A stretch of DNA of 64,000 nucleotides, filler included, from Asterionella formosa (lineage: Eukaryota): the NCBI GenBank assembly GCA_002256025.1. It is 5 parts of 5 records of this genome, joined end to end, with 100 filler letters (N's around TTAATTAATTAA, not from the genome) between each part and the next. Parts side by side here need not be neighbours in the genome. Positions count along the whole stretch, not along the records: positions 26,296 to 39,330 come from NKIB01007002.1; 4 more parts are not named here. One strand, given 5' to 3'. The position numbers and the translations under genes are program-made. The notes under the pieces were generated by a model. It did not search any database. It was not told the DNA's origin and saw only the letters and a list, made by a program, of their open reading frames with translations. This document shows, in pieces, positions 9,461 to 42,921 of this stretch (position 1 is its first letter; every line of letters starts with the position of its first letter).

Positions 9461-10097
9461 GCATTACATTCTCATTTCATTTACAGTATACATTATCACG
9501 TCATTGTTATATTCGCATTACATGATAGCATGCATAACCTGGTATATTATGGCTATTTATACATACAAGCTATATTTAAGATATATATATTTTACCTGTG
9601 TGGATGCATGTGAGGTGACTTTAAACAAGTACCAGCTACATGGTTCTACCGGTACTGGGTACACAGTGTAAGTTTGTACGACATCAACATTTTGCCGCCC
9701 CATCTGCAGTCGTATTTGGACTCTCGCCATCACTCTCCACATTTACTTGTACTGAACATAATTAATATCCGAGACATCACAGACAATCTGATACAGTACA
9801 GGTTCTCTACAATATATATATTTCTATATACCGGAATATATATCATTGATCAATTTCGTCACAAGGGGAGAAGTTGTAAATATACTCCTACATAATATAT
9901 ATGTACCGGTACCACCCCGCCTGCCCGTGGTAGATAAAAAGCACGTTCACCGCAATTTTTAATCATCTTTTTTTTAATGTAGCCTCTCTGATAAATGAAT
10001 CAAAAGATACTTGAACCTATATTGCTGCTTGTCATCTGTGATTTATCTGGTGCTGATTTGCTGTTTAGTAACTAAACGCTATACCACATCCTCATCC

Positions 10098-13049
10098 ATG
10101 CAAGAAGCGACTCTCGAAGACTACGGAGTGCTAGAAGTCAAAGTTATTAAATTGAAGCGGGCCAACGCGCACGCAAGGGCAATTTCGAAGCAACAAGTAG
10201 AGGCACTCCAAAAACAAATTCAAGCGCTACAAACGTTGGATAGGGAGATTTATGAGCTTAAGAAACGAGAAAACGTATTGGAAGAAGAATTGGACCGGGA
10301 TAATTCAACCAGCGCCGGTCAAAAGCATCTGCGATTTTCCTGTGATCCTGGAAACAACTTGCCCTCAAGGCGGCGACAGCTGACATATCTGCTCAGTGTT
10401 CTTGAAACTAAGACGAAACAAGTTAAACTTACCATGGAAAATCATGAAAATATGAATGATGACTTGGAGCGAATAAGCAAAAAGGCGTCTCACCGCACAG
10501 TCAAACGAACGCTCTTGGAGGAGCTTCTAGAGCAGGAAGCTGCCTTAATGCGAGAGTTAATGGCACTGCGAGCATACAGAGAAGAATTACGATTGCATTA
10601 TTGGAAAAGTATCTCCAATTCATCTTCATCAAATTCTTTCGGAAACGAAAAAAATAAATTGCTGTCACCTCGAATTTCGGCAACGGAAAGGAAACCGTCG
10701 CGGTTAGAACCAATTCAAGGATTTGCGGATGGGACCGAGATAACAGATGAAATCGACTCGATTGACGGATCTATAAACTCAAATCTTCACGATTCTTCGG
10801 CCGCAAATAAATATCATTTGAAGGACATTGCTGTATCTCAGCCTTCTGAGATTGAGCCCCTTTATCACCTTTCAGACAAAGCGTCGCGTTCGACACCCCA
10901 GGAACTGGAGTCAATGTTCGAGGATAATTTAGATGTCCAAAACGAACCAATACCTGCTCTCCTCGAGCCTTTGTGGAACCAAGTAGCGCTTCAAAATGAG
11001 ACCCCGAAACAGGTAGACGCCGAGAACGAGGACTATAGTGTCACTCCATCATTGACACCTTCCGCAGCGTCCGGTGCTTCAACAAAGGTAAATCGCGGTT
11101 GGTTTACCTCCCGAGTATTTTTCCGAGGATTAGCACAAGAGTCATCTACAGAAGATCTATATGGAAATCAGGAAAACGACGAAGTCAGTCAGGAAAGCAT
11201 GAATAAATCGAATTCGCAAAATAGTCGAAAACCCAGTGGAAATATGAAAACCCAGAAATCTATGACACTCAAGTTGTTCGGTGGTTATTCGAGAACTCCT
11301 CAAAATAAAAGGACTCCCGAAGATTCAAATGAGCAATCGTTTGACGAAGATACCCCATTTCCGACTTTCCCGTCGGATTCTGCCGAAGACTTCGGCCTTG
11401 ATGAACATCAACAGGCAGCCATTGAAAGGCTGAAAGTGTTCTTGACGGCAGAGGAACCCGACTTATTCCAGAAATTACAAAGCAAACACAAACAGAATAT
11501 TAACAAACCGAAATGTGAGGCATTACGCAGTCGCCAAGATTCGGACGGTAGCAAAGACTCAGACAGCACAGAGGTAAGGACGAAGAGCCTACACGAAGCA
11601 GATGAGACAGATACGCAAGAATCAGATTTTTTTTTGTCACAAGCTGAGAACGGCGAGACGACCTCTAATCCGCACATTAAAGAGATTCTAAAATTTGATG
11701 AAGACGGTTTCGAAACAAGTCCTACGAACAGACATTCAAGTGAGTCAGAAACTAAGTCGATGGAACAATGGAGACAGAAGAAGCGTGAACAAGAGGCACT
11801 AGCTGACCTGAACTCGATCCATTCGTTCGTTTTTGATGAATCGGACGAAACATCTGCAACACTACTGGCTGAACCTCCATCAGAAATCGTAATGGACACT
11901 GAACAACAAGCAGCGATTCAGAAGCTAAAGATGATACGGAAATCCAGACGATTAATTCCGGGTGAAGTATCTCATCAAGAATCGCATACTCAAGAAAGCA
12001 ACCACGATTATGATATTGAATCTATCGCTAGTGACGACCACATCAGTGAGTCAGAAACTGAATCGATGAAACAGTGGAGACGGAAGAAGCGTGAACAAGA
12101 GGCACTAGCTGACCAGAACTCGATCCATTCATTCATATTTGGTGAATCCGACGAAACATCTGAAACACTATCGGCTGCACCTCCATTAGAAATTGTAATG
12201 GACGCTGAACAACAGGCAACGATTCAGAGGCTAGATATATTGCAGAAATCAAGTGGAGTAATTCCGGGAGAAGTATCTCATCTAGAATCGCATACCCAAG
12301 AAAGCAACCACGATTATGATATTGAATCTATCGCTAGTGACGACCACATCAGCGAGTCAGAAACTGAATCGATGAAACAGTGGAGACGGAAGAAGCGTGA
12401 AGAAGACGCACTAGCTGACCAAAACTCTATCCATTCATTCATTTTTGGTGAATCCGACGAAACATCTGAAACACTACCGGCTGCACCTCCATTAGAAATC
12501 GTAATGGACGCTGAACAACAGGCAACGATTCAGAGGCTAGATATATTGCAGAAATCAAGTGGAGTAATTCCGGGAGAAGCATCTCATCAAGAATCGCATA
12601 CTCAAGAAAGTAACCACGATTATGATATTGAATCTTTCGCTAGTGACGACCACATCAGCGAGTCAGAAACTGAAACGATGAAACAGTGGAGACGGAAGAA
12701 GCGTGAAGAAGACGCACTTGCTGACCAAAACTCTATCCATTCATTCATTTTTGGTGAGTCCGACGACACACCTGCAACACTACTGGCTGAACCTCCATCA
12801 GAAATCGTAATGGACACTGAACAACAAGCAGCGATTCAGAAGCTAAAGATGATACGGAAATCCAGACGATTAATTCCGGGTGAAGTATCTCATCAAGAAT
12901 CGCATACTCAAGAAAGCAACCTCGATTATGATATTGAATCTATCGCTAGTGACGACCACATCAGCGAGTCAGAAACTGAATCGATGAAACAGTGGAGACG
13001 GAAGAAGCGTGAAGAAGACGCACTAGCTGACCAAAACTCTATCCATTCA
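10098..13049 (+). CDS. Hypothetical protein: N-terminal coiled coil plus acidic 102-aa tandem repeats; 3' truncated by contig end
   Basis: ORF open for about 3 kb up to the N spacer; first ATG at 10098 (MQEATLE). Confidence 0.8.
11739..13049 (+). repeat. Coding tandem repeat, 306-bp unit, more than 4 copies
   Basis: ag(t/c)gagtcagaaact recurs at 11739, 12045, 12351, 12657 and 12963. Confidence 0.95.
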
Positions 13050-13149
13050 NNNNNNNNNNNNNNNNNNNNNNNNNNNNNNNNNNNNNNNNNNNNTTAATTA
13101 ATTAANNNNNNNNNNNNNNNNNNNNNNNNNNNNNNNNNNNNNNNNNNNN
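13050..13149. other. Artificial contig spacer (N-TTAATTAATTAA-N)
   Basis: 100-bp N run containing an all-frame stop linker; identical to the other three spacers. Confidence 0.97.
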
Positions 13150-14623: not shown

Positions 14624-17600
14624 CTATTTGGTCATTTTGGTGCCCTTCGCTTTGCCTATAGTTTCAGATTCTGTGTCATAGAACCAATCATCATCTTCCA
14701 GTTGAAAAAGACCCGGGACAAACCTTCCATCCCTTGAGTAATTGTCCAATCGCTTGTAGCCTCGTCCTTTCTGCCGTTTGCGTGGGCGTGGGTTGCCTTC
14801 CATGTCCGATTGGTCACCCAGGTAAGGGTCATCATCAGTCAGCCTATCTGCGGGCCTTCGCACAGCCATGACTACTTCATTGGCATCCATATCATCTTGG
14901 GCTCCTGTTCGGAGGAACGTCAAGTCAACAACATTCCCGAATTTTGAAGAATCCATGCAATCATCATCCTCAGTCTTCACAGGCACACCGAGTGGATCAG
15001 GTGAACCCCAGGTTTTACCTTCATCGTCACTGCTAATGACAACCACTTCCGAAAACGAAACTTCCATCGGGTCAATGATAACGACATCGCTGGCATCATC
15101 ATCATTGAAAACTGGTGCTGCATCATCAAGCCCAACTTTTTTGACAGCAAGCATAGGCGCTTCAATGCCAACAGAAACCAGAAAATCCTTGACCCATTGC
15201 ATAGTTATCTGATGATCCAGCAGAAACGAAAGTGCATCTACTCGAAGGGTCTTCCATCCTACTCGCTCGATTGACCTTTGCTGTTGAAACATCGATTTCC
15301 ATTCTCCGAGGGACTCACCAGCTCCTTCAATGATGGCTGCCGCACGAGACCCAGAATGGGGACTTTCCACACTTATACCCTTATTCCAAATTTTCCCCAT
15401 TGAGCGATGGCCAAAATTTTCTTGTGCCAAGGCGCTTCGAAAGAGAGCAGATACTTGACGCTCAAACATACCAGTAGAATTTGGTTCATCCATCGTGGTA
15501 TCCTCTATATCTTCGTTGTGTAGCTGAGCAAAGAAACCAATAATTGGAATTTTGATGTCCTGATTGTTAGATACGTGATTTGTGTTGATACTTCTGACAA
15601 GCACCAACCTATCACGGGCTCTAGATAGAGCTACATTGGCACGTTGGGCATGCATTAACTGAGTTTGAGAAGGGACGCTACCGGGAGAACAAACTAGGCT
15701 CAGAAAGACAATATCACGCTCTGCTCCCTGGAAGGAAGGAGGTTCTCCAACAAGAATATTATGTTCATTCATTTTTTGAGGCCCGATGACATCAAGGAGT
15801 CTTCCTCGAATAAGCCTGCTTTGGTCATCTCCTATTAAAGAAATGACACCAATACTTCGGGGGTGTCCACTCGCATCATCACGGGAGACTTGATCTCGAA
15901 TCATTTCAATGATCTTATCGCACTCTTTCTCGTTGATTTTTCCCACTTTGACACCTTCCACTTCTATATCAACAAGTGATGGCGACAAACGCTCTTGACT
16001 TGTTGGTAATCGTAGTGGAACAAGTCGATTGTTGTAGAACTGACTGTTGCTGAATGCTATAATCTCTGGGGCACATCGAAAATGCTCCCGTAGAACTGCG
16101 CGGCCTTGAGGATACGCTTGACTACAAAGATCGAAAAAGCTGCACCCCGGTAAAAGCGATTCATCAAATGGCGATTCAGGAACAGCAGCGCGGAGGTTGA
16201 CAATGGAAACCTCAGAAATGAAAGCCTCCGTGGGGCTTACTTGTTTGCCGTCACCCACAATCAACCACTGTTTGCCTCGAAGAATTCCTGGTAAAGCTGT
16301 CACATCACTTTGTGATGCTTCATCAAGAACCACAAGGTCAAATAGGTCAAACTCGGCTGGTAAGTAGTCACTAATCTGAGAAGAAGTAAGAATCCAGCAG
16401 GGGATGTAACGAACGCACCGCTCAAAGGCATCTAAATACTCTTGTCGATGACGGCGTTGACGCTGTGAGAGTTTGCTCAATTGTGCTGACTTTCCGAACT
16501 TCGACCTTGCCGCTATTTGGGAAAATCGGATGAGCTGACGTTGTGCTTCAACGTCAAACATACGACTTAGTTGGGTCATCATTGTCGCCTCAACCAATTC
16601 GGTGGACAACTGTTGAAGTTGACTTGCCACTTGCGTCCGTCTTAAATCAAGTTGCATTGCCTCCGCAGCCACTTTGCAAGTATCGAACAACTCATAATTC
16701 CACACAAGCTCCTTCAACTCTGACAGTTTCTTCATCCATACAATAAACTCCTTGTCGATACGCCTTCTCCCGCCGTTGTTCCTCATCACCTTGTCAACTG
16801 CCCACCCATTGGTAGTAATCAAGGGTTCCAACGTTGTCCTAATAAAATTATCGATCTCATGCTCCCGTCGAAGGGCAGAACAGACTATCTCCCAGTCAGA
16901 CTTGGAAACAGGAGATTTTCCATCAAGGAGAAGACTTCCAACCAATTCGGTTAATTTTGCACATCTTGTTGTCAAACCCAAGAGGTTGCCGATGCCCGGT
17001 ACTTTAGCGATGAATTGACTTACTGATGTGTTCAAGGACGACAGCGTCTCGCCTGCTTTTGATGCAACTAATGTGATCAAATTTCCAGAAACTGGACAAG
17101 AAAAGCCACTCACTCTCTCGATAATGTCCGAGGAATCAACAAACATCATATCGGCCCTTTCGGCAATCTCGTGAGCCTCCTCCACGCTAATTTTTCTCGC
17201 GGCTTCCAGCATCCATGGCACTTCATTCATCATTGAAATCGAAATATTCATAACTTTTTGCCCTTCCTCTGAGTGGACGAAGCGCGTTCTATGGTGAGCC
17301 TGAACCTCCAGCTTTGTATCAATTGATCTCACCTCTCCCTCAAGTGTATCAATCTTTCGTTGAAGAACTAGGCATCGCTCTTTGTGTACATCGTTGTTGA
17401 GACCAGATATTCTATCAGCGAGATGCTCCACTGTTTGTTGCAATTGACGCATACCCTGTGATTCACTCATGGACACATCAACACACAATTCTCTTACACA
17501 TGGTGGCAATCGATGTCGCAACACCGAGAGTGCTGGAGCACCCTTGGAGGTTACCAGCACCCTTTTCCCTTGAGATAGGTAATCACATACAATATTTGCA

Positions 17601-19054
17601 ATGGTTTGACTTTTGCCACTACCTGGAGGCCCCTCACACACTACTGCAGGAACCCCTCTGGCAAGCAACATGGAAATTTGAGTCTGTGTTTCTGAGGTTG
17701 GCAGAGGCAATAAAGGCTTTATTGGCAGATCGGAATGTTTCGCAGTGCTTCCAGCAAATATTGATTTCATGGAAATCCATACATCATGAAAATTATTTGC
17801 TCTTCCTTTGCTTCTACTTAACAAGTCCATCACTGCAGGACCATGTGTTAACGACCATGCAGCCATAGGTAGGCTCGATGCTGGTTGGGCCATTACATTT
17901 TCAGCCATTTTCGATGCATCTCGTGCCCACACAGTGCCCGGTTTGGGTCTATGAAAGACACACCAGTCATCTGTCACAACCAGTTTCTTTGGATCAACAT
18001 TGTTATACACATCGGCTGCACTAACAAAGCAACCATCAGGTGAAAGCTCAACAGCCAAACCTCTTAACAATTTTGAATAAGTGTGTGGCTCTCCTGGAGC
18101 AAATTCATAAGTTTCTATTTCTGAAACGGTCCGATGCCACGAAGTAATTACATCAGTAGATCGAGTCAAAGCTGTCATTACTTCAGCATTGAGGTGTACG
18201 CCAGCATGTTGGCGTGGTCGAACTAACAAAGCTCCATCTCGAGCCAATTCCACTTCAACTAGTACTTCTAGTAATGGTCCATTCACAATCCTGCCATCCT
18301 CCAGCTGCTGCATTCCGTTCCCAAAGCCCCAAACTAAATCATCGTTCTCCCTTGCCTCCTGTAAACAATCAAAGAGTCTATTGTATAGTGGTTCCAGTTC
18401 TTGTTTCATTGCAGCTCGCTTGAGGTACGTTTTGTATTGCCTAAGAAAATTTTTGATTTCTGTTTGTTGATTTTGGCTCATGGAGGGTGGAGGCTTTGGT
18501 GCAGTGGCGAGTTGTTCTAGCGTCAATATTTTGGAGGAATTTATTCTCGAAATCAAATTCCATTGTTGCAAATACTCTTCAACTGCTGCACTTTTTGTCG
18601 AGGGTTTTGTTCGTTGTGACGTGAATCTAGTCAATCGAAGCCAACATGGTCTGTTATTATTAAAAGACATGTTGGCTTCTAGTTTGTTAGTAGTTTTATA
18701 TGTTTTTCGTTTGTTGGCGTCGGCTGTTGTTGCTATTGTTGTTCTGTTGGAGGAATAAAAGGAAAATGGCGGTGTACCACCCAGTTCAGCAGTGTGCTTC
18801 GTAATGCGACGAAAGTCATTTGTCGTGAATAGTATTCTATCTTCTATTCCCTGGAAATAGGCCAAAGTTTTGCCACTGGCATGTTCACGAACAAAGGAAA
18901 GTCGATCCACATCGTCGGCACCTACTTGGTGCATTTTCGAAATGTAATGTAAAATTTGAGCCAAACGCTTTTTGTGAGTCGCTTCCGCATCAGTTAGGGA
19001 CGATAAAGTCACTGCCTTCGTCCATGATGATGATGATGATGATGTGGATTCCAT
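14624..19054 (-). CDS. Superfamily 1 (DNA2/NAM7/UPF1-like) helicase with C-terminal Vsr/REase-like domain, bacterial-type architecture
   Basis: Walker A GPPGSGKS, RVLVTSK, FDLVVLDEASQ, IVGDGKQVSP, LREHFRC..EIIAFSN..FY, FQGAERD, NVALSRARD. Tail FERQV..AAIIEGAG..QQRSIERVGWK.LRV. Intronless ORF; start ATG taken at 19054 (uncertain). Confidence 0.9.
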   Translation of the reverse strand: MESTSSSSSSWTKAVTLSSLTDAEATHKKRLAQILHYISKMHQVGADDVDRLSFVREHASGKTLAYFQGIEDRILFTTNDFRRITKHTAELGGTPPFSFYSSNRTTIATTADANKRKTYKTTNKLEANMSFNNNRPCWLRLTRFTSQRTKPSTKSAAVEEYLQQWNLISRINSSKILTLEQLATAPKPPPSMSQNQQTEIKNFLRQYKTYLKRAAMKQELEPLYNRLFDCLQEARENDDLVWGFGNGMQQLEDGRIVNGPLLEVLVEVELARDGALLVRPRQHAGVHLNAEVMTALTRSTDVITSWHRTVSEIETYEFAPGEPHTYSKLLRGLAVELSPDGCFVSAADVYNNVDPKKLVVTDDWCVFHRPKPGTVWARDASKMAENVMAQPASSLPMAAWSLTHGPAVMDLLSRSKGRANNFHDVWISMKSIFAGSTAKHSDLPIKPLLPLPTSETQTQISMLLARGVPAVVCEGPPGSGKSQTIANIVCDYLSQGKRVLVTSKGAPALSVLRHRLPPCVRELCVDVSMSESQGMRQLQQTVEHLADRISGLNNDVHKERCLVLQRKIDTLEGEVRSIDTKLEVQAHHRTRFVHSEEGQKVMNISISMMNEVPWMLEAARKISVEEAHEIAERADMMFVDSSDIIERVSGFSCPVSGNLITLVASKAGETLSSLNTSVSQFIAKVPGIGNLLGLTTRCAKLTELVGSLLLDGKSPVSKSDWEIVCSALRREHEIDNFIRTTLEPLITTNGWAVDKVMRNNGGRRRIDKEFIVWMKKLSELKELVWNYELFDTCKVAAEAMQLDLRRTQVASQLQQLSTELVEATMMTQLSRMFDVEAQRQLIRFSQIAARSKFGKSAQLSKLSQRQRRHRQEYLDAFERCVRYIPCWILTSSQISDYLPAEFDLFDLVVLDEASQSDVTALPGILRGKQWLIVGDGKQVSPTEAFISEVSIVNLRAAVPESPFDESLLPGCSFFDLCSQAYPQGRAVLREHFRCAPEIIAFSNSQFYNNRLVPLRLPTSQERLSPSLVDIEVEGVKVGKINEKECDKIIEMIRDQVSRDDASGHPRSIGVISLIGDDQSRLIRGRLLDVIGPQKMNEHNILVGEPPSFQGAERDIVFLSLVCSPGSVPSQTQLMHAQRANVALSRARDRLVLVRSINTNHVSNNQDIKIPIIGFFAQLHNEDIEDTTMDEPNSTGMFERQVSALFRSALAQENFGHRSMGKIWNKGISVESPHSGSRAAAIIEGAGESLGEWKSMFQQQRSIERVGWKTLRVDALSFLLDHQITMQWVKDFLVSVGIEAPMLAVKKVGLDDAAPVFNDDDASDVVIIDPMEVSFSEVVVISSDDEGKTWGSPDPLGVPVKTEDDDCMDSSKFGNVVDLTFLRTGAQDDMDANEVVMAVRRPADRLTDDDPYLGDQSDMEGNPRPRKRQKGRGYKRLDNYSRDGRFVPGLFQLEDDDWFYDTESETIGKAKGTKMTK

Positions 19055-19904
19055 CGTTCGCTGAGATTGCTTTGCTGCTGGTGTAATTGTAACAGCGGTA
19101 GTATTTATAGAATCGAAGAATAGAAATGATATTGCTGATAGAACGAGTATACCGGGGCGGGGGTAGGTAGACAAAAAGCAATAATCGATAAAGCAAATCG
19201 AGATTGAGAGAATTCAGCCAAGAAGTGGTTTACACACGTACATACATTTATGTACGGACGGCTGCATAAATTCATAATTCGTAACAAGAATCGTCATCGC
19301 GCCATCGTCGTAGGCCGATGCCGCCGCGTCTACATACCGGTAGTCCTTTCGTCCCTTTCAAATTGCTTACCGGTGCCTACTTACTAACTACAGTATCGGT
19401 ATGGACATAGCGTTGGATCGTGTTTGATCCAGACGAGGAGGCCAAAGCCATGCGAAGTGCCGTGCGGTGAATGAGACATTTAGCTTGGTTTTCTTTCTAG
19501 TGAGAACCGTCTTTTACCGAACCTCCCTGTAATAACTCCTTGTACTCATTCGTTGTTTCAGTGTAGGTACTGTACCTCCCGGGATACACTTGTTATTTAT
19601 ACTCCCCCACCCACCTGCGTCTGATACGTACGTACCTGGCAGTCCACTCCAATACCGGGATCATGTCGTAGCAAAATGCCCTCGCATCACGCATTTGCTT
19701 GGCTTTCTTCGTACTCGCTCTTTTAAAGTATTGCATGTTGCTCATACATATATATAGTCGAGGCTCAATAACGCGTACTTAAAAATTTAGTTACCACATA
19801 TATATAAGAATATCTGTATGTGCATGTGTGTATGTACCGGTAGCTGTTGTTCTTGTTCTTTTCCATTGCAGCATACCATTAAGTGAGTAATCGAGCAGTT
19901 GACG

Positions 19905-26195: not shown

Positions 26196-26295
26196 NNNNN
26201 NNNNNNNNNNNNNNNNNNNNNNNNNNNNNNNNNNNNNNNTTAATTAATTAANNNNNNNNNNNNNNNNNNNNNNNNNNNNNNNNNNNNNNNNNNNN
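26196..26295. other. Artificial contig spacer
   Basis: 100-bp N-TTAATTAATTAA-N. Confidence 0.97.
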
Positions 26296-28150: not shown

Positions 28151-29383
28151 ATGAGCCTCTCCGATGCTGCCTCGTCCGACCCAAATACGGACCCAGAAAT
28201 GTCGACCACAGCTCCTAGCTTGGATTACGACGGCGACGGGTTCGACTTTTCGCTGTGTGGCGAGGACGATATGAGCGACGACAGTGAGCAGTTTTTGCCG
28301 CTTCCCGGAAAGGAGTCGCACACAGCTGATATGGAGCAGTTCGAACTTTACTTAAGAAAAATCAAGGCTCTTCCTCGCATGGAGTACGAAGGGGACTCGC
28401 CGTTCAACGCTGACTTCTGGGCGTACATTCAAGGAGTGCTTGAACAGGCAAGGCCTCTAGGCTTTGATGACTTGCCTGATCGCGAGCAGTGCGAACCCAA
28501 GGGACCTAGCGATAACACGGCCATGATTACCAAGATTATCGAAACCGTTCCTATCAATCCTATTCACCCACATTTTGTGGCAGAGTTGTCTGGAGTCCCC
28601 CTTCAGGACGCCTTGACTGAACTTCATTACGCCGTCCAAGTGGGCATGATGACCATGCGATGGACTCCCGTCTGTGAGCGTTGTGCTAGTCCCGTATGCG
28701 CGAAGTTCAGCCTCAACAAGTTCCCCTCTGTTGCCTTCTGCAAGTCATGTCGCTACACCACTGGCGTCGAAATGATGCAGAAGATCAAGGTCATGTTCGT
28801 GTTTAACCAAGATATTTTTTACGCTTTGGCTCAAACGTTAGCCTGCAAACCTTCCAACCAGGCTCTGTCGGTCACCGAGTTCTACGCGATGATGCCTGCC
28901 ACTTTCAGTGGATCTGGATTCACTTGGTCCGCCGGTTGCGATGGGGATAAAATGCTCCGTCCTCCTCTTGCGCCCGGAAAATATCGCATGCGCTGCCCTA
29001 TATCCTTGACTGACTCATGGTTTGTCGTCGAGCGCGAAGCTTCTGAACATGATGAACCGTTTGATCTTAACATTCATGTTTCAGATCTGGTGTATCGAGG
29101 TGGCGACATGAAGACAATCACTGTACCTCACGGGAAGGTTCGTTTTCATTGTTTTTGTGACACCAATTCATTCTTCATACTTTGGATTCTGCAAGACTTG
29201 GACGCAAAGACGTTACTTTATTTACCACCAGATGAACGCTCGCCGCTGACAGACGCAGTTACCGTCATGGCACATCCAACATACCGAAAATGGTTCGAGG
29301 GAACGGATCGCGAAGCTGATTTATTTGCAGGTGCTGTTCAGCGAATGATGATGACCGCCGAAGCTTCTAAAGCGGATAATTGA
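28151..29383 (+). CDS. DUF5939-like Cys-rich protein lacking a cyclase domain (paralog A)
   Basis: INPIHPHFVAE..LTELHYAVQVGMMTMRWTPVCERC..FCKSC..IKVMF, LAPGKYRMR, TDAVTVMAHPTYRKWF. This pattern is recalled from the N-terminal region of bacterial DUF5939 adenylate/guanylate cyclases. Confidence 0.75.
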   Translation: MSLSDAASSDPNTDPEMSTTAPSLDYDGDGFDFSLCGEDDMSDDSEQFLPLPGKESHTADMEQFELYLRKIKALPRMEYEGDSPFNADFWAYIQGVLEQARPLGFDDLPDREQCEPKGPSDNTAMITKIIETVPINPIHPHFVAELSGVPLQDALTELHYAVQVGMMTMRWTPVCERCASPVCAKFSLNKFPSVAFCKSCRYTTGVEMMQKIKVMFVFNQDIFYALAQTLACKPSNQALSVTEFYAMMPATFSGSGFTWSAGCDGDKMLRPPLAPGKYRMRCPISLTDSWFVVEREASEHDEPFDLNIHVSDLVYRGGDMKTITVPHGKVRFHCFCDTNSFFILWILQDLDAKTLLYLPPDERSPLTDAVTVMAHPTYRKWFEGTDREADLFAGAVQRMMMTAEASKADN

Positions 29384-29855
29384 AGCAAATTTATGGAAGA
29401 TCAATGATCCACTAATTTGATTCTGTTTTATTACCGAAGATCAACTGCACAGGAATGCCCTTACATCGTGCATTGACTACCATTACATTTTATTATTCCT
29501 CAATATCATCTCCATGTTTCCGATTGATTGTAGTTTCAGACATTAGATCTTTTATTTCTTATCACGATAAATGAGCTGAATCTTTTTTCACTGCTGCGTG
29601 GCGAATATTTTCTCCTTTCGTTTTTGAATGCATCGCTTTGATTCACTACTTCCAAGTGTTGCGCACCATGCAACACACTAGATGCAAGACCTTCCTTCAA
29701 CTCAATCCACTATGATGTTCCACGTAATAATTCCCTCGTGAACTTGCAAACTTTGAATAAAAATTTGAGATCAAATGAATAACGTTTTCTTTTCTATACA
29801 CAATTTAACTATTCTCTCCAGTGGACACGTGTGGTCCCACTCCATGGAAATGATA

Positions 29856-31139
29856 CTATTCCAATTGATCACTCACGGATCCTATCAGGTCAGACTCGAG
29901 CTTCATTTTATGAACAGCTTCATTGAAGTGTTCCAACTCTGTTTCGGTATTTTCCAGTATCGACTGATAGGTTGGATTTTCCATGACTCGGTACGCACTA
30001 GTGAAAGGAGGGTTTTCTTGTTGAATCAACATTGTGAGACCTTCATCATCAACATTTGGGAGGATCCAACAGACAAAAAAAGATTGAGTGTCGGTAAATA
30101 TATCCATATGAATTTTACCGTGCTCCACCTTCAAAACGTTACGTTGCTTTCCTCCCTTGTAGTACAAGAGATCCGATACGTGGACAGGTAGAACACAGGC
30201 TTCGTCGTCATCCGTAGCATCTCGTTCCACTTCGAGGAAGTTGTCTGTCAAGGTCACAGGGCAGTGCATTCGATAACATCCAGCTGGAAGACTAGGCCGA
30301 ATCATGTCATCGCCACCGCAGCCAATCGAGTATCGAAATCCAGAACCAGTGAAGGTTGCCGGAACAATTGTGTACATATAGGTCATGTCTTTTGCCTCTG
30401 ATGGTATAATGCCATGATAATTTTCCGCCAAGACGTAAAAGACATCCGGATTTAGACGAAAGACAACCTTGATTTTCTGAAGGACTTCAATGGCATTAGT
30501 ATACCTGCATCCATTGCAAAAGACCGTCTGGACTTGAGACTTCCGAGAATTACGTTTCTGATGTGCGCAGCAACCAGAAGTCCTCTCACAGGACGGACCC
30601 CATTCCATTGTAACACATCCCACAATAGTAGCATAAATCAACTCCGTCAATACTTCATCTAAGGAAATACCAGAATCCTCAGCAATGAGGTGCGGATTTA
30701 TCGGGTTAATGATGGCAGTGTTCTGGATTTTCGCAATGAAAGCTTCGTTTTCTTCCGGACCCTTTTGATCGGTCTTGTCGGAGTCAGGTAACTCGCAGTA
30801 ACCCACTGACTTCGCTTTTTCAAGCACTTCCTTCATGAATATCCAGAACTGTTCACAAAATGGAGTGCATGTTTCGAATCTAGGTTGAATTTTTACACGT
30901 TGAATGTAAATCAAAAATTGGTCAATATCAGAAGTGTGCGACTCTCGCCCTGGCATAGGCAACAGCTCTTCGTCATCGCTGCTATCAATGCTGCACAAAC
31001 TGCATTTGCTCCATTGTCTCGATAGGCACCTTTCGGAGGTAAGGCTTCCACGGCGGTAGTGAATCATTTCAGGTTGTCTGCAAACTTGAGCTTCCCGCAG
31101 TGGTTGATTAAGCTTGATACGGTCTTGTTCACCCTGCAT
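29856..31139 (-). CDS. DUF5939-like protein (paralog B), convergent with paralog A
   Basis: Collinear similarity to paralog A (LP.PG.ESHT.D..QF, KGP..N.A.I.KI, INPI.PH..AE.SG, PATF.GSGF..S.GC.GD.M.RP.L..G.YRM.CP..LTD, HVSDL.Y, DT.SFF..WIL). Start ATG uncertain. Confidence 0.8.
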   Translation of the reverse strand: MQGEQDRIKLNQPLREAQVCRQPEMIHYRRGSLTSERCLSRQWSKCSLCSIDSSDDEELLPMPGRESHTSDIDQFLIYIQRVKIQPRFETCTPFCEQFWIFMKEVLEKAKSVGYCELPDSDKTDQKGPEENEAFIAKIQNTAIINPINPHLIAEDSGISLDEVLTELIYATIVGCVTMEWGPSCERTSGCCAHQKRNSRKSQVQTVFCNGCRYTNAIEVLQKIKVVFRLNPDVFYVLAENYHGIIPSEAKDMTYMYTIVPATFTGSGFRYSIGCGGDDMIRPSLPAGCYRMHCPVTLTDNFLEVERDATDDDEACVLPVHVSDLLYYKGGKQRNVLKVEHGKIHMDIFTDTQSFFVCWILPNVDDEGLTMLIQQENPPFTSAYRVMENPTYQSILENTETELEHFNEAVHKMKLESDLIGSVSDQLE

Positions 31140-31997: not shown

Positions 31998-33180
31998 ATG
32001 AGCAATGATATGGACTCATCTGATGATGATTGCCTCTACCATTTCCGCAAGATGCATCATCAACAAAGAAGTGAGAATGATGCAAAGAAAATACAAAATA
32101 GGGGAGGAGGAGGTTCCAAGGTTGGCAAGGCTACTAACGTGAATCGCTTTCGCACAGAGTATGATATGGGGGATGACTATTTCAGCGAGAATCCAATCTA
32201 CTCTCCTGCACATTTCAGGAGGCGCTTCCGGATGCGTCGCTCCTTATTTGAAAAGATTCTTGAAGATTTGGATGAGGCGAATCCATACTTTAAACAGAAG
32301 AAAGATGCCTTGGGTCTGGTCGGTTTTTCGCCACATCAAAATTTAACCTCAGCACTTCAAATGTTGGCTTATGGAACTTTGGCAGATCAGCTGGATGACC
32401 TCACAAGAATGGCTTAAGCGACTACACTCCACATCCTAAAAGTGTTTTGTAACTCAACAATCAGCAGGTATGGAACAGAATACTTGCGAGCTCCTACAAA
32501 GGATGACATGGAAATGGTTTTACGTCTACATGAAGCAAAGGCAGGGTTGGCCGGGACTTCTTGGTTCATTGGATGTGATGCAGTGGAAATGGAAGAATTG
32601 TCTCAAGGCACACAGAGGAGCGTTTCAAGGAAAATATGGAGTGGCTACTGTTGCTTTGGAAGCTGCTATTGATTGTAGACTTTGGTTCCTCTGGCACGCA
32701 TGGTTCGGAATGCCAGGTGTTGACAGCAATCTCAATATTTTGGATCGTTCTCCATTTTTCCGGGATCTGACAGCTGGAAGGACTCCTGCCGTCAACTTCA
32801 CAATCAACAACAAAGAACACAATCTAGGTTACTCTTTGGTTGATGGCATCTATCCAGATTGGCACATTTTTGTCAAAACAATTTCAGAACCACAAGGTGC
32901 AAAGCGAGCACATTTTTCAATGGTTCAAGAGGCCCAACGCATGGACGTAGAGCGAGCATTTGGTGTGCTAAGAAAAGCAATGTGGAGGATCCTGGCGCTT
33001 CCATGCAACCTTTGGTCAGTGGGTGCAATGAATCATGTCATCACTCCATGTATCACACTACACAACATGATTGTAGAAGATGAGGGGGATACAAAAGACA
33101 CAAACGAATATTTATTTGATAATATTCAGGATGCTTTTTGGTTGACAATGTGAATCACGACAATGTGCATACTTTTCTAG
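31998..33180 (+). pseudogene. Pong/Harbinger DDE transposase, disrupted
   Basis: DYFSENPIY..HFRRRFRMRRSLF, LQMLAYG, GWPGLLGSLDVMQWKWKNC, LEA..D..LW..WHAWFGMPG, LVDGIYPDW, QEAQRMDVERAFGVL, CITLHNMIVEDE. Stop at 32415 and a frameshift near 32540. Confidence 0.9.
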
Positions 33181-40980: not shown

Positions 40981-41388
40981 TTTACCTACCACTAGTTTTA
41001 ACTTCTAGACCCCCGTATCAGGGTTGAGTAGAAACGGGAGTCCTAGGCAAAGCGGGTACAGAATACCGGTAAATAGTCAACTATTTTATCATTTTATCCC
41101 GGGATGAATAAATTTATCTGGCACAAAAGAAAATAGGAGCTGAAATGACGAGACAACATGACACCAACATTTGCTTGTCACGACTCCCATGTATAAAATG
41201 TATCACAATTTTAAGTTGTAGACTACGTCGGTACTCCACCGAGTACCAACTTGATAGTTCTACTTGATTGATGCATAGGCACTGCTACAATTTGCCTTGT
41301 CGCTGCACACAATTGATAGCCAACCAACCACCCCTGCAGTCTAGCACATTGCAGCCAATGTTCGCATTGCGCAATGCACACAAAAAAC

Positions 41389-42921
41389 ATGTTTTCTCCA
41401 ATATTTCGAGGGCCCAAATTGGCGCTCGTTCGCTTCTCGAGCTGCAATAGCAAGGTCCTCTCGTCAGTTCAAGAAGCTCTTTCCAAGGTCCCCTCTCTTG
41501 AAAACGTGACTGTGTGTATCGGAGGCTTTGGACTCGGAGGCAACCCCGAGACTTTCTTGAGTGCTCTCTCCGAACATGACGGCACTTCCAATCTCACAGT
41601 CGCGTCGCTGACGGCAGGCATCGATGGCTTTGGTCTTGGCAAACTCATTGAAGGGGGGAAAGTCAAGAGAATTATTTCCAGCTATGTCGGGGAGAATGCG
41701 GAACTCGAGAAGAGATACTTTAATGGATCTCTACAGGTCGAACTGACGCCTCAGGGGACCTTGGCGCAGCGCATGCAGGCAGCAGGGGCTGGTATACCTG
41801 CATTCTTTACTCGAACTGGGGCCGGAACGATTTATGCCACTGGAGGCATTCCTATTCAGTACACATCAGACGGATCTGGAGATGTACTAGTCGAGAGCAC
41901 TCCAAAAGTTACGCAAGAATTTGATGGACTGGAATATGTCATGGAACTAGCCCTCAAGGCTGACGTTGCGTTTGTCAAGGCTTGGAAGGCCGACACTAGA
42001 GGTAATCTTGTCTTTCGAGGAACAGCACAAAATTCGAATCCAGATGCTGCAATGTCGGGAAAGATTTGTTTGGTGGAAGCAGAGGAAATCGTAGAAGCGG
42101 GGGCGTTGCACCCCAATGAGATTCACCTTCCTGGTGTATACGTCGACCACGTGATTCTAGCGACAGAAAATGAAAAACACGTAGAACGATTGCGATTGGC
42201 TTCTACCGGAGGAAGAAATGGGGTCGTGAAGGGAGGGCGGGGAAGAATAATGAGACGAGCCGCCAAGGAGTTCAAGGATGGGATGTATGTCAATCTTGGG
42301 ATTGGGTTGCCGACCATGGCGAGCAACTACATTCCGGAAGGGGTGAAGATTGAATTGCAAGCCGAGAATGGTCTCATGGGCATTGGACCCTATCCTGCTT
42401 CGGAAGCAGACGCTGACGCGGATTACATCAACGCTGGAAAAGAAACTATTACTGCCTTGCCAGGAGCAAGTACGTTTAGTTCGAGTAATTCCTTCAACAT
42501 GATTCGAGGGGGACATATTGATTTGACTATATTGGGAGGACTTCAGTGCAGCGCTACAGGAGATCTAGCTAACTGGATTGTACCGGGTAAGCTTGTCAAG
42601 GGTATGGGAGGCGCCATGGATTTGGTCGGCGCTCAAGGCACTAGGGTTGTTGTGACTATGGACCATACGGCAAAGGATGGTTCACCTAAAATTCTTCAGG
42701 TTTGTTCCCTTCCGTTGACTGGTCACAAAGTGGTGGACAGAATCATTACTGATGTCGGGGTCTTTGATTGCGACAAGCGCGGTGAGGGTGGTTTGACCTT
42801 GGTTGAGATTGCCCCTGGAATGACTGTTGCGGATGTTAGGGCCTGTACTGGGGCGGACTTTAAGACTGTACCAGAGCCCATTCCTCTCATGGATGACCAT
42901 ATCGACGAAGATCATGAGTAG
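41389..42921 (+). CDS. OXCT1: Mitochondrial succinyl-CoA:3-ketoacid CoA transferase (SCOT, fused alpha/beta)
   Basis: [57 protein letters not shown], catalytic [23 protein letters not shown]; presequence-like N-terminus. Confidence 0.96.

Follow-up and report, generated by a model that had tools for sequence, protein, structure and literature searches.

In the diatom Asterionella formosa, two adjacent genes, termed A and B, were found to encode the DUF5939 module (PF19363), the front half of a family of class III nucleotide cyclases, with the catalytic half missing. The genes were located at positions 28151 to 31139 of a 64,000-nucleotide stretch joined from five parts of the genome assembly GCA_002256025.1; this whole stretch is called the window. 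A and B represent a paired diatom subfamily without a cyclase, a variant within a domain family that is catalogued but unstudied. According to the simplest reading of the sequences, the stand-alone proteins would derive from eukaryotic fusions of DUF5939 with a class III cyclase by loss of the catalytic domain, most simply in one event. As the best explanation, this account of descent and architecture was judged very probable. The mechanistic part of the same explanation, by which A and B would act in trans as regulators, was proposed by analogy and is tentative, and the two parts taken together were given about even prospects.

Gene A extended on the plus strand from its first ATG at 28151 to a stop codon ending at 29383 (410 aa plus stop), and gene B extended on the minus strand from its first ATG at 31139 to a stop codon ending at 29856 (427 aa plus stop). 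The list of open reading frames (ORFs) agreed with the sequence-only reading of this locus as two intact, intronless genes in a convergent, tail-to-tail arrangement. The two stop codons were separated by a spacer of 472 bp (29384 to 29855), which must contain the 3' ends of both genes and leaves no space for an extra coding exon of either. The earlier description of A and B as diverged but collinear paralogs was also correct, with 45% identity over 376 residues and 10 gap positions in the BLASTP alignment (E 5e-117). The exact sequences of both proteins were present in public protein collections, and the exact A protein fell in a 90%-identity cluster of seven members. The pI values were 4.7 for A and 4.9 for B, the net charges were -25 and -23, respectively, and no hydrophobic or membrane span was found. 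Judged from their sequences, A and B are acidic, soluble proteins.

The Pfam profile of DUF5939 matched B at 32.7 bits, above the gathering score of 22.5, and residues 132-244 corresponded to profile positions 24-134 of 281. A was placed in the family because of its 45% identity to B and because the profile shared by the stand-alone proteins recovered true DUF5939 proteins, with scores of up to 150 bits on DUF5939. This stand-alone profile was built from 20 proteins and run against 1.84 billion cluster representatives, in which 169 clusters were found at E ≤ 1e-3, 93 at E ≤ 1e-10 and 62 at E ≤ 1e-30. On these sequence counts, the family of A and B is small. Only A and B were detected by the profile in the window (E 6e-198 and 1.8e-177), and the next best piece had an E value of 1.5.

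The relatives were then surveyed for their domain partners. The protein search with B returned 45 proteins, 21 of which possessed a Guanylate_cyc domain (550-745 aa), whereas the 24 without it were B itself, 17 proteins of 342-585 aa and six short pieces. Fifty-one matches of the stand-alone profile were scanned with Pfam, namely, 22 strong matches of the eukaryotic type and 29 weak ones. Guanylate_cyc was present in 12 of the 22 strong matches. The closest relatives were eukaryotic fusions of DUF5939 with a cyclase, with diatoms among those that had names. The named fused members were those of the diatoms Thalassionema frauenfeldii (P0035, an MMETSP transcript), Seminavis robusta (P0112, CAB9498523.1, named 'Receptor-type adenylate cyclase') and Odontella aurita (P0221), that of Papus ankaliazontas and one in a transcriptome with the label 'Hpha'. 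The named stand-alone member, P0008, was derived from a transcriptome of the diatom Grammatophora oceanica. Orthologs of B (P0002 and P0003) had identities of 73-74%, and orthologs of A (P0215, P0216 and P0217) had identities of 69-72%. Used by itself as the metagenome query, B retrieved no relative, and a second scan with an alignment gave four loci.

The weak matches comprised 22 proteins with DUF5939 and Guanylate_cyc (about 450-640 aa), six with DUF5939 alone and one unrelated repeat protein. This group was assigned to bacteria by a prokaryote scan with one genome per species, in which 564 DUF5939-cyclase stretches were confirmed by tblastn. The best 80 of the 564 stretches spanned nearly the whole DUF5939-cyclase query and came from Chloroflexota, Rhizobium, Mesorhizobium, Bradyrhizobium, Nitrospinota, Acidobacteriota, Myxococcota, Planctomycetota and others. 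The statement that the module normally lies directly before a class III cyclase in bacteria was thus supported both by these stretches and by 22 of the 28 bacterial-type matches. The system had been called apparently uncharacterised, and the full-text literature search for DUF5939 or PF19363 likewise returned no paper. Moreover, no treatment of the family was found in the titles and abstract openings of the papers listed by a search on diatom class III adenylyl cyclases.

The absence of a cyclase after either ORF, as stated from the sequence alone, was evaluated at several levels. Neither A nor B matched Guanylate_cyc (PF00211) at E ≤ 1 in Pfam, and a cyclase hidden Markov model made from the 21 fused relatives, run unfiltered, detected nothing when all six frames of the window were searched as 2071 pieces (best E 7.2). 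In the fused relatives, the cyclase ran on in the same frame directly after the HP.F..LF helices, and in the uncut metagenome DNA of L002 and L004 it followed the module immediately, within one exon. A and B ended 32 and 36 residues past the H/NPTY motif, respectively. Together with the other cyclase-less proteins, they ended in a common tail, T-E-x-E-..-F-x-x-A-V-+-K/R-M, of which F..AV.KM was conserved among 26 stand-alone proteins. The tail of A (FAGAVQRM, residues 392-399, 29324 to 29347, plus strand) stood where the cyclase domain starts in the fused relatives. The conservation of the common tail indicates that it is the true C-terminus of the subfamily and not an artefact of truncation. 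P0028, P0099 and P0222, which were short and had no such tail, grouped with the fused forms in the trees and were cut-off fused forms. Furthermore, at the metagenome locus L001 the end of the stand-alone frame was 92 bp away from the 3' end of a long ORF of unchecked family that converges on it. The placement of the tail by MAFFT had suggested that F..AV.KM was a remnant of the first strand and helix of the cyclase (FTD.VGST); this idea was dropped as unsupported.

These data were compared with the possibility that A and B are not truly stand-alone, either because a distant cyclase exon is spliced on or because the ORFs are decaying remnants of a cyclase gene. Introns can occur inside the cyclase part of a fused relative, as in L004, which would be compatible with splicing. 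However, L002 and L004 themselves enter the cyclase without leaving the exon, both frames in A. formosa stop after the tail conserved across 26 proteins, the genes converge at a distance of 472 bp, and the window was devoid of any cyclase-like piece. The decay of the genes was opposed by the intact frames in all relatives, by the 35 invariant columns among 20 stand-alone sequences, and by the proportion of nonsynonymous differences between A and B (pN 0.38), which was far below the saturated proportion of synonymous differences (pS 0.82). Splicing or decay is hence extremely unlikely.

Several observations on gene structure were made beside these results. The stand-alone gene at L001:3-1226 (+) had an in-frame, intron-like insert that separated NFA from CTPS by about 32 residues, and the frame at L003:253-1017 (+) was broken after the second CxxC. 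Some of the metagenome stand-alone genes, L001 and L003, therefore appear to be intron-bearing, unlike A and B. In addition, a starred clade of eukaryotic proteins of the family (P0077, P0087, P0088, P0094, P0098 and P0101) had a C-terminal extension of 220-335 aa that still resembled a cyclase, for example, in the GRV..-..GD motif. All six were without a Guanylate_cyc match at E ≤ 1e-4, and the F-T-D metal-binding stretch was replaced in them. These proteins, some of which are named 'class 3 adenylate cyclase' in their sources, are possible pseudo-cyclases.

The descent of the stand-alone proteins was explored with two trees. The quick tree was computed for the module only, with 76 rows, and was rooted on 15 bacterial rows. 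The 20 stand-alone rows formed one clade (support 98 in the Shimodaira-Hasegawa-like approximate likelihood ratio test, SH-aLRT) inside a starred 49-row group that otherwise consisted of fused forms. Further fused lineages branched deeper, and the branch to the bacterial outgroup was about 2.2 changes per column. The careful tree comprised 47 rows and was evaluated by ultrafast bootstrap and SH-aLRT; 24 of its 26 true stand-alone rows were in one clade (92/92). When all 26 stand-alone rows were forced together, the log-likelihood was 0.59 above that of the free tree, and the p value of the approximately unbiased test was 0.527. A single loss of the cyclase is thus the best-fitting history. Within the stand-alone clade, the A clade (8 rows, support 100/99) and the B clade (10 rows, 99/95) were sisters joined at 97/93, and each contained three parallel sub-clades. 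Orthologs of both A and B were found at about 70% and about 50% identity. The sister position of the two clades and these orthologs indicate that the duplication was old and that both copies were kept.

The sequence-only reading had regarded A and B as a bare bacterial DUF5939 module that was acquired horizontally and acted in trans, sensing metal or redox state. DUF5939 is indeed widespread in bacteria, as the 564 confirmed stretches demonstrate; six of the 28 bacterial-type matches were without a cyclase match, and the four cysteines of the module are invariant in bacterial and long eukaryotic rows alike. However, the nearest relatives of A and B were eukaryotic fusions (35-45% identity), which matched the stand-alone profile at E 1e-120 across the whole module, whereas the bacterial group covered the profile only at positions of about 139-223, that is, the last helices and the cysteine loop (about 85 residues), at E 1e-10 to 1e-4. 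The stand-alone rows lay inside the fused eukaryotic forms, and the bacteria were an outgroup at the end of a long branch. The GC content at third codon positions (GC3) was 0.45 for B, within the 0.39-0.54 spanned by six neighbouring genes, and 0.55 for A, just above that range. The saturated pS, the pN below it and the host-like GC3 argue against recent transfer as well as against decay. Moreover, no partner family recurred among the nearest flanking ORFs at 76 bacterial loci of the best 80 stretches (139 of the 147 ORFs picked), and these ORFs included one rubrerythrin, one Fe/Mn superoxide dismutase, one AhpC and three cNMP-binding proteins. The invariant cysteines also look like those of a structural zinc ribbon. 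Transfer of the bare module is therefore very unlikely, and this part of the earlier proposal was not supported, loss of the cyclase domain from eukaryotic fusions being the simpler reading.

The N-terminal block pointed in the same direction. It occupied residues 49-60 of A (LPLPGKESHTAD, 28295 to 28330, plus strand) and, as its counterpart, residues 60-71 of B (LPMPGRESHTSD, 30927 to 30962, minus strand). The extra conserved block noticed earlier in A and B was real, but it was not special to the pair, because the eukaryotic fused forms also had GRESHT.D. The G-R-E-S-H-T-x-D block was conserved at 90% or more across 39 aligned rows, which comprised both stand-alone and fused forms. The bacterial proteins began after it, so that this eukaryote-specific block and the first helix were absent from bacteria, a further point against the transfer of a bacterial module.

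The motifs GRESHT.D, INPI.P, VLTEL, SGFRYS.G, YRMHCP, PHGK and DT.SFF were common to stand-alone and fused forms. Judging by these motifs, the functional surface of the cyclase front half looks retained in the stand-alone forms. The eukaryotic fusions shared the whole N-terminal module with A and B, including GRESHT.D, the winged-helix-like domain with the cysteine loop, the beta-sandwich and the HP.F helices. In contrast to A and B, which stop after a different conserved tail of 30 residues, they run directly into Guanylate_cyc. The bacterial DUF5939-cyclase proteins (about 450-500 aa; Chloroflexota, Rhizobiales and others) resembled A and B in the helices and CxxC...CxxC core at profile positions of about 139-223 and in the beta-rich region after it. 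Their module adjoins the class III cyclase on its N-terminal side and, unlike A and B, is always or mostly fused; these proteins are distant and begin downstream of the block and first helix. An N-terminal W.xCSLC motif was confined to the stand-alone clade relative to the fused forms, and CSLC was present in 13 of the 18 rows that had this region. One stand-alone sub-clade (P0008, P0011, P0015 and P0016) possessed a basic, K/R-rich C-terminus (...KR.R(P).RS.QA), absent from A and B, which could be a localisation signal.

The paralogs differed in the cysteine loop. The loop of A (residues 175-202, 28673 to 28756, plus strand) read CERC-ASPVC...CKSC, with the canonical CxxC...CxxC at residues 175-200 and a fifth cysteine. 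The loop of B (residues 184-213, 30501 to 30590, minus strand) was degenerate and read CERT-SGCC...CNGC, with CERTSGCC...CNGC at residues 184-211, and its second canonical cysteine was gone. The cysteines were tallied by alignment column over the 76 rows. All four canonical cysteines were found in 15/15 bacterial rows, 41/41 long eukaryotic rows and 10/10 stand-alone rows outside the B clade. Only one of the ten B-clade rows kept the second canonical cysteine (lost in 9/10). The cysteine strings noticed earlier, with the rearranged first pair of B, were confirmed. An extra cysteine a few residues downstream was present in 19 of the 20 stand-alone rows, including 9 of the 10 B-clade rows, in comparison with 4 of the 41 long eukaryotic rows and none of the 15 bacterial rows. 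This distribution places the origin of the extra cysteine at the emergence of the stand-alone clade or shortly before it. The extra cysteine may have permitted the loss of the second ligand in the B clade, and C190 and C191 of B are candidate substitutes. The added fifth cysteine and the W.xCSLC motif distinguish the stand-alone forms from the eukaryotic fusions.

The AlphaFold2 model of B was built from the 39-row alignment, with a mean predicted local distance difference test (pLDDT) value of 80.8 and a predicted template modelling score (pTM) of 0.78. Residues 1-55 were modelled as disordered, whereas the GRESHT.D block and the helices following it were confident (pLDDT 92-98 for residues 61-80). 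The helices of residues 72-172 and the strands 176-182 and 223-229 were predicted to form a winged-helix-like domain. The cysteine loop (184-211) was located between the two wing strands, and residues 186-207 had pLDDT values below 50. The strands of a predicted beta-sandwich followed between residues 255 and 361, and then four helices at residues 365-410, the last of which (399-410) bore the stand-alone tail F..AV.KM. The region of the beta-sandwich and the four C-terminal helices (residues 236-417, 29889 to 30434, minus strand) was modelled separately with a pLDDT of 86.2.

The comparison of these models with solved structures gave weak matches. The best match of B residues of about 71-235 was the zinc-bound PerR structure 2fe3_A (Z 5.8, rmsd 3.1, 79 aligned residues; VIA-align), followed by TFE-alpha (1q1h_A, Z 5.5) and by members of the GntR, Fur and CRP families (Z 5.0-5.7). 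The structures of PerR/Fur (2fe3_A, 2xig_A) and TFE-alpha/TFIIE-alpha (1q1h_A, 6pln_A) shared with B a helical core, a beta-hairpin wing (Z 5.4-5.8) and a Cys4-type site near the wing. However, the scores were weak, there was no sequence relation, the surface of B was acidic, and its cysteine loop was inserted within the wing. For the beta-sandwich model, a circularly permuted azurin ranked first with no more than Z 3.9 and an rmsd of 4.5, and the others were generic beta-sandwiches at Z ≤ 3.9. The bacterial relative P0169 had a Cupredoxin_1 match of sub-threshold length. Foldseek found no match in the PDB at E ≤ 0.001 for either the whole B model or the beta-sandwich model, the sequence search of PDB chains gave 0 matches at E ≤ 10, and the ESM Atlas provided no usable feature match, its own model of B being poor (pLDDT 0.29). 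Hence, neither predicted domain has a close solved relative.

The structural matches raised the question of a cyclase-independent role, in which the winged-helix and cysteine-loop domain would bind nucleic acid or protein as a regulator or scaffold, the link to cyclic nucleotides having gone. The best matches of B were winged-helix DNA-binding domains, and the stand-alone forms had features of their own, namely, the W.xCSLC motif, the new tail and, in P0008, P0011, P0015 and P0016, the basic C-terminus. However, none of the winged-helix scores reached Z 8, and values of 5-6 are common for unrelated models. The net charge of the winged-helix segment was -4 to -5, and VLTELIYAT, the helix of B that occupies the recognition position, was without basic residues; an acidic segment speaks against DNA binding. 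Furthermore, every motif in common with the cyclase-linked forms was kept, which indicates a retained rather than a new function. A role apart from cyclases was therefore considered rather unlikely.

The retained function would instead be regulatory. A and B keep the whole predicted N-terminal module, that is, the GRESHT.D block, the winged-helix-like domain, the cysteine loop on the beta-hairpin wing, the beta-sandwich and the helical C-terminal cap with the new tail. In cyclic-nucleotide signalling they may serve as regulatory or sensor subunits without catalysis of their own, and they would bind whatever ligand or partner the cyclase front half recognises. Class III cyclases work as dimers, in which two catalytic domains are needed for an active site, and pairing would for this reason be the most likely route of action. 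A could pair with B, or either protein with the corresponding domain of a full-length cyclase, and the cyclase dimers would thereby be tuned or blocked; alternatively, A and B could pair together and signal to something else. This mechanism is possible but falls clearly short of probable.

The pairing of the two genes may be conserved. The A-type and B-type cluster members were recorded with longest contigs of equal size, 6552 bp for A and B themselves and 24982, 6282 and 91113 bp for the others. The value of 91113 bp was also given for a third stand-alone type, and the pairs matched the parallel division of each clade into three sub-clades. Conserved adjacency of A and B would give equal contig sizes in the three other cases, and the agreement is suggestive. 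A bolder proposal is that A, with its full Cys4 site, and B, with its rewired site, are a conserved linked two-gene module and form a heterodimeric sensor, which would dock on the N-terminal domains of DUF5939-cyclases and switch the synthesis of cAMP or cGMP on and off in diatoms. The proposal is unlikely in this specific form.

Several points weigh against the account of A and B as cyclase-derived regulatory subunits of a diatom subfamily. In the DUF5939 profile check, the assignment made from the sequence alone stood for B and for the shared profile but not for A by itself, which scored only 12.4 bits (E 0.088), under the cut-off of 22.5. Only the first half of the PF19363 profile was aligned in both proteins; Pfam left them unaligned in the beta-rich second half (about 135-281), and several bacterial members aligned weakly in that half under the stand-alone profile, for example, P0168 at profile positions 261-389 (E 8.5e-06). 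Six of the 28 bacterial-type matches (P0162, P0177, P0180, P0184, P0185 and P0194) showed DUF5939 without a cyclase, possibly as cut gene calls, and P0185 (318 aa) spanned the whole DUF5939 profile and then ended. Cyclase-less forms may therefore not be special to eukaryotes. In the careful tree, P0017 and P0220 were outside the 24-row stand-alone clade and the backbone was a polytomy, so that a single loss is compatible with the constraint result but not proven by it. The cyclase search covered the 64-kb window, and a full-length DUF5939-cyclase elsewhere in this diatom would be outside its scope. The loss of the cysteine in the B clade and the poorly modelled loop of B suggest that the paralogs may differ in biochemical function. 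The proposed mechanism was drawn from architecture and analogy, which keeps it tentative. The description of the subfamily as diatom-restricted is also provisional, because only one stand-alone protein, that of Grammatophora, had an organism name. A and B are two old paralogs of this small eukaryotic subfamily, whose members are from diatoms where a name is given.

The host was read from the other genes of the window. Nearby ORFs matched condensin II CAP-H2, the HSF DNA-binding domain, gamma-glutamyltranspeptidase, a class 3 lipase, a Harbinger/PIF-type transposase and others. A 3-oxoacid CoA-transferase at 41374 to 42918 had 7147 relatives at E ≤ 1e-100, and every organism name among the 120 matches listed was that of a diatom. 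The identities were 73% for Nitzschia inconspicua, 72% for Bacillariaceae sp. and Cylindrotheca fusiformis, 71% for Mayamaea pseudoterrestris, 70% for Seminavis robusta, 68% for Helicotheca and 65% for Nitzschia sp. Nitz4. Because of these flanking genes, the window is eukaryotic DNA of the diatom nucleus.

Other features of the window were observed in passing. The Harbinger/PIF-type transposase locus (31998 to 33153, plus strand) lay about 860 bp upstream of the start of B; its ORF (32470 to 33153, plus strand) matched Plant_tran (PF04827) at E 9.2e-64, as well as DDE_Tnp_4. It was preceded by an ORF of 139 aa (31998 to 32417, plus strand) without a Pfam match, which may be a first exon or a partner. 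A run of N at about 26200-26250 (near 26240) was read as an assembly gap, and X occurred in two ORF translations ending at 26247 and 26251. Two long uninterrupted ORFs were also present, namely, one of 1028 aa at 10011 to 13097 on the plus strand with a short NOV_C match and one of 1516 aa at 14624 to 19174 on the minus strand, an Upf1-like superfamily 1 helicase that matched AAA_11/AAA_12.

DUF5939 is widespread as the receptor-like N-terminal part of class III cyclases and occurs in soil bacteria, diatoms and some other protists. Diatoms use cAMP in their responses to CO2 and nutrients, and to our knowledge the receptors of diatom cyclases are largely unknown. As a variant of a catalogued domain family, with a function that we infer, the A/B pair is of moderate significance. 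A small, soluble, intronless module that has long been kept in two forms offers a handle for finding the bound metal, ligand or partner and for solving the structure. The pair may represent a regulatory subunit made by cutting an enzyme off its own sensor. If the heterodimer proposal were true, the receptor domain of class III cyclases would itself have supplied A and B, a regulatory subunit that acts on these enzymes in trans.

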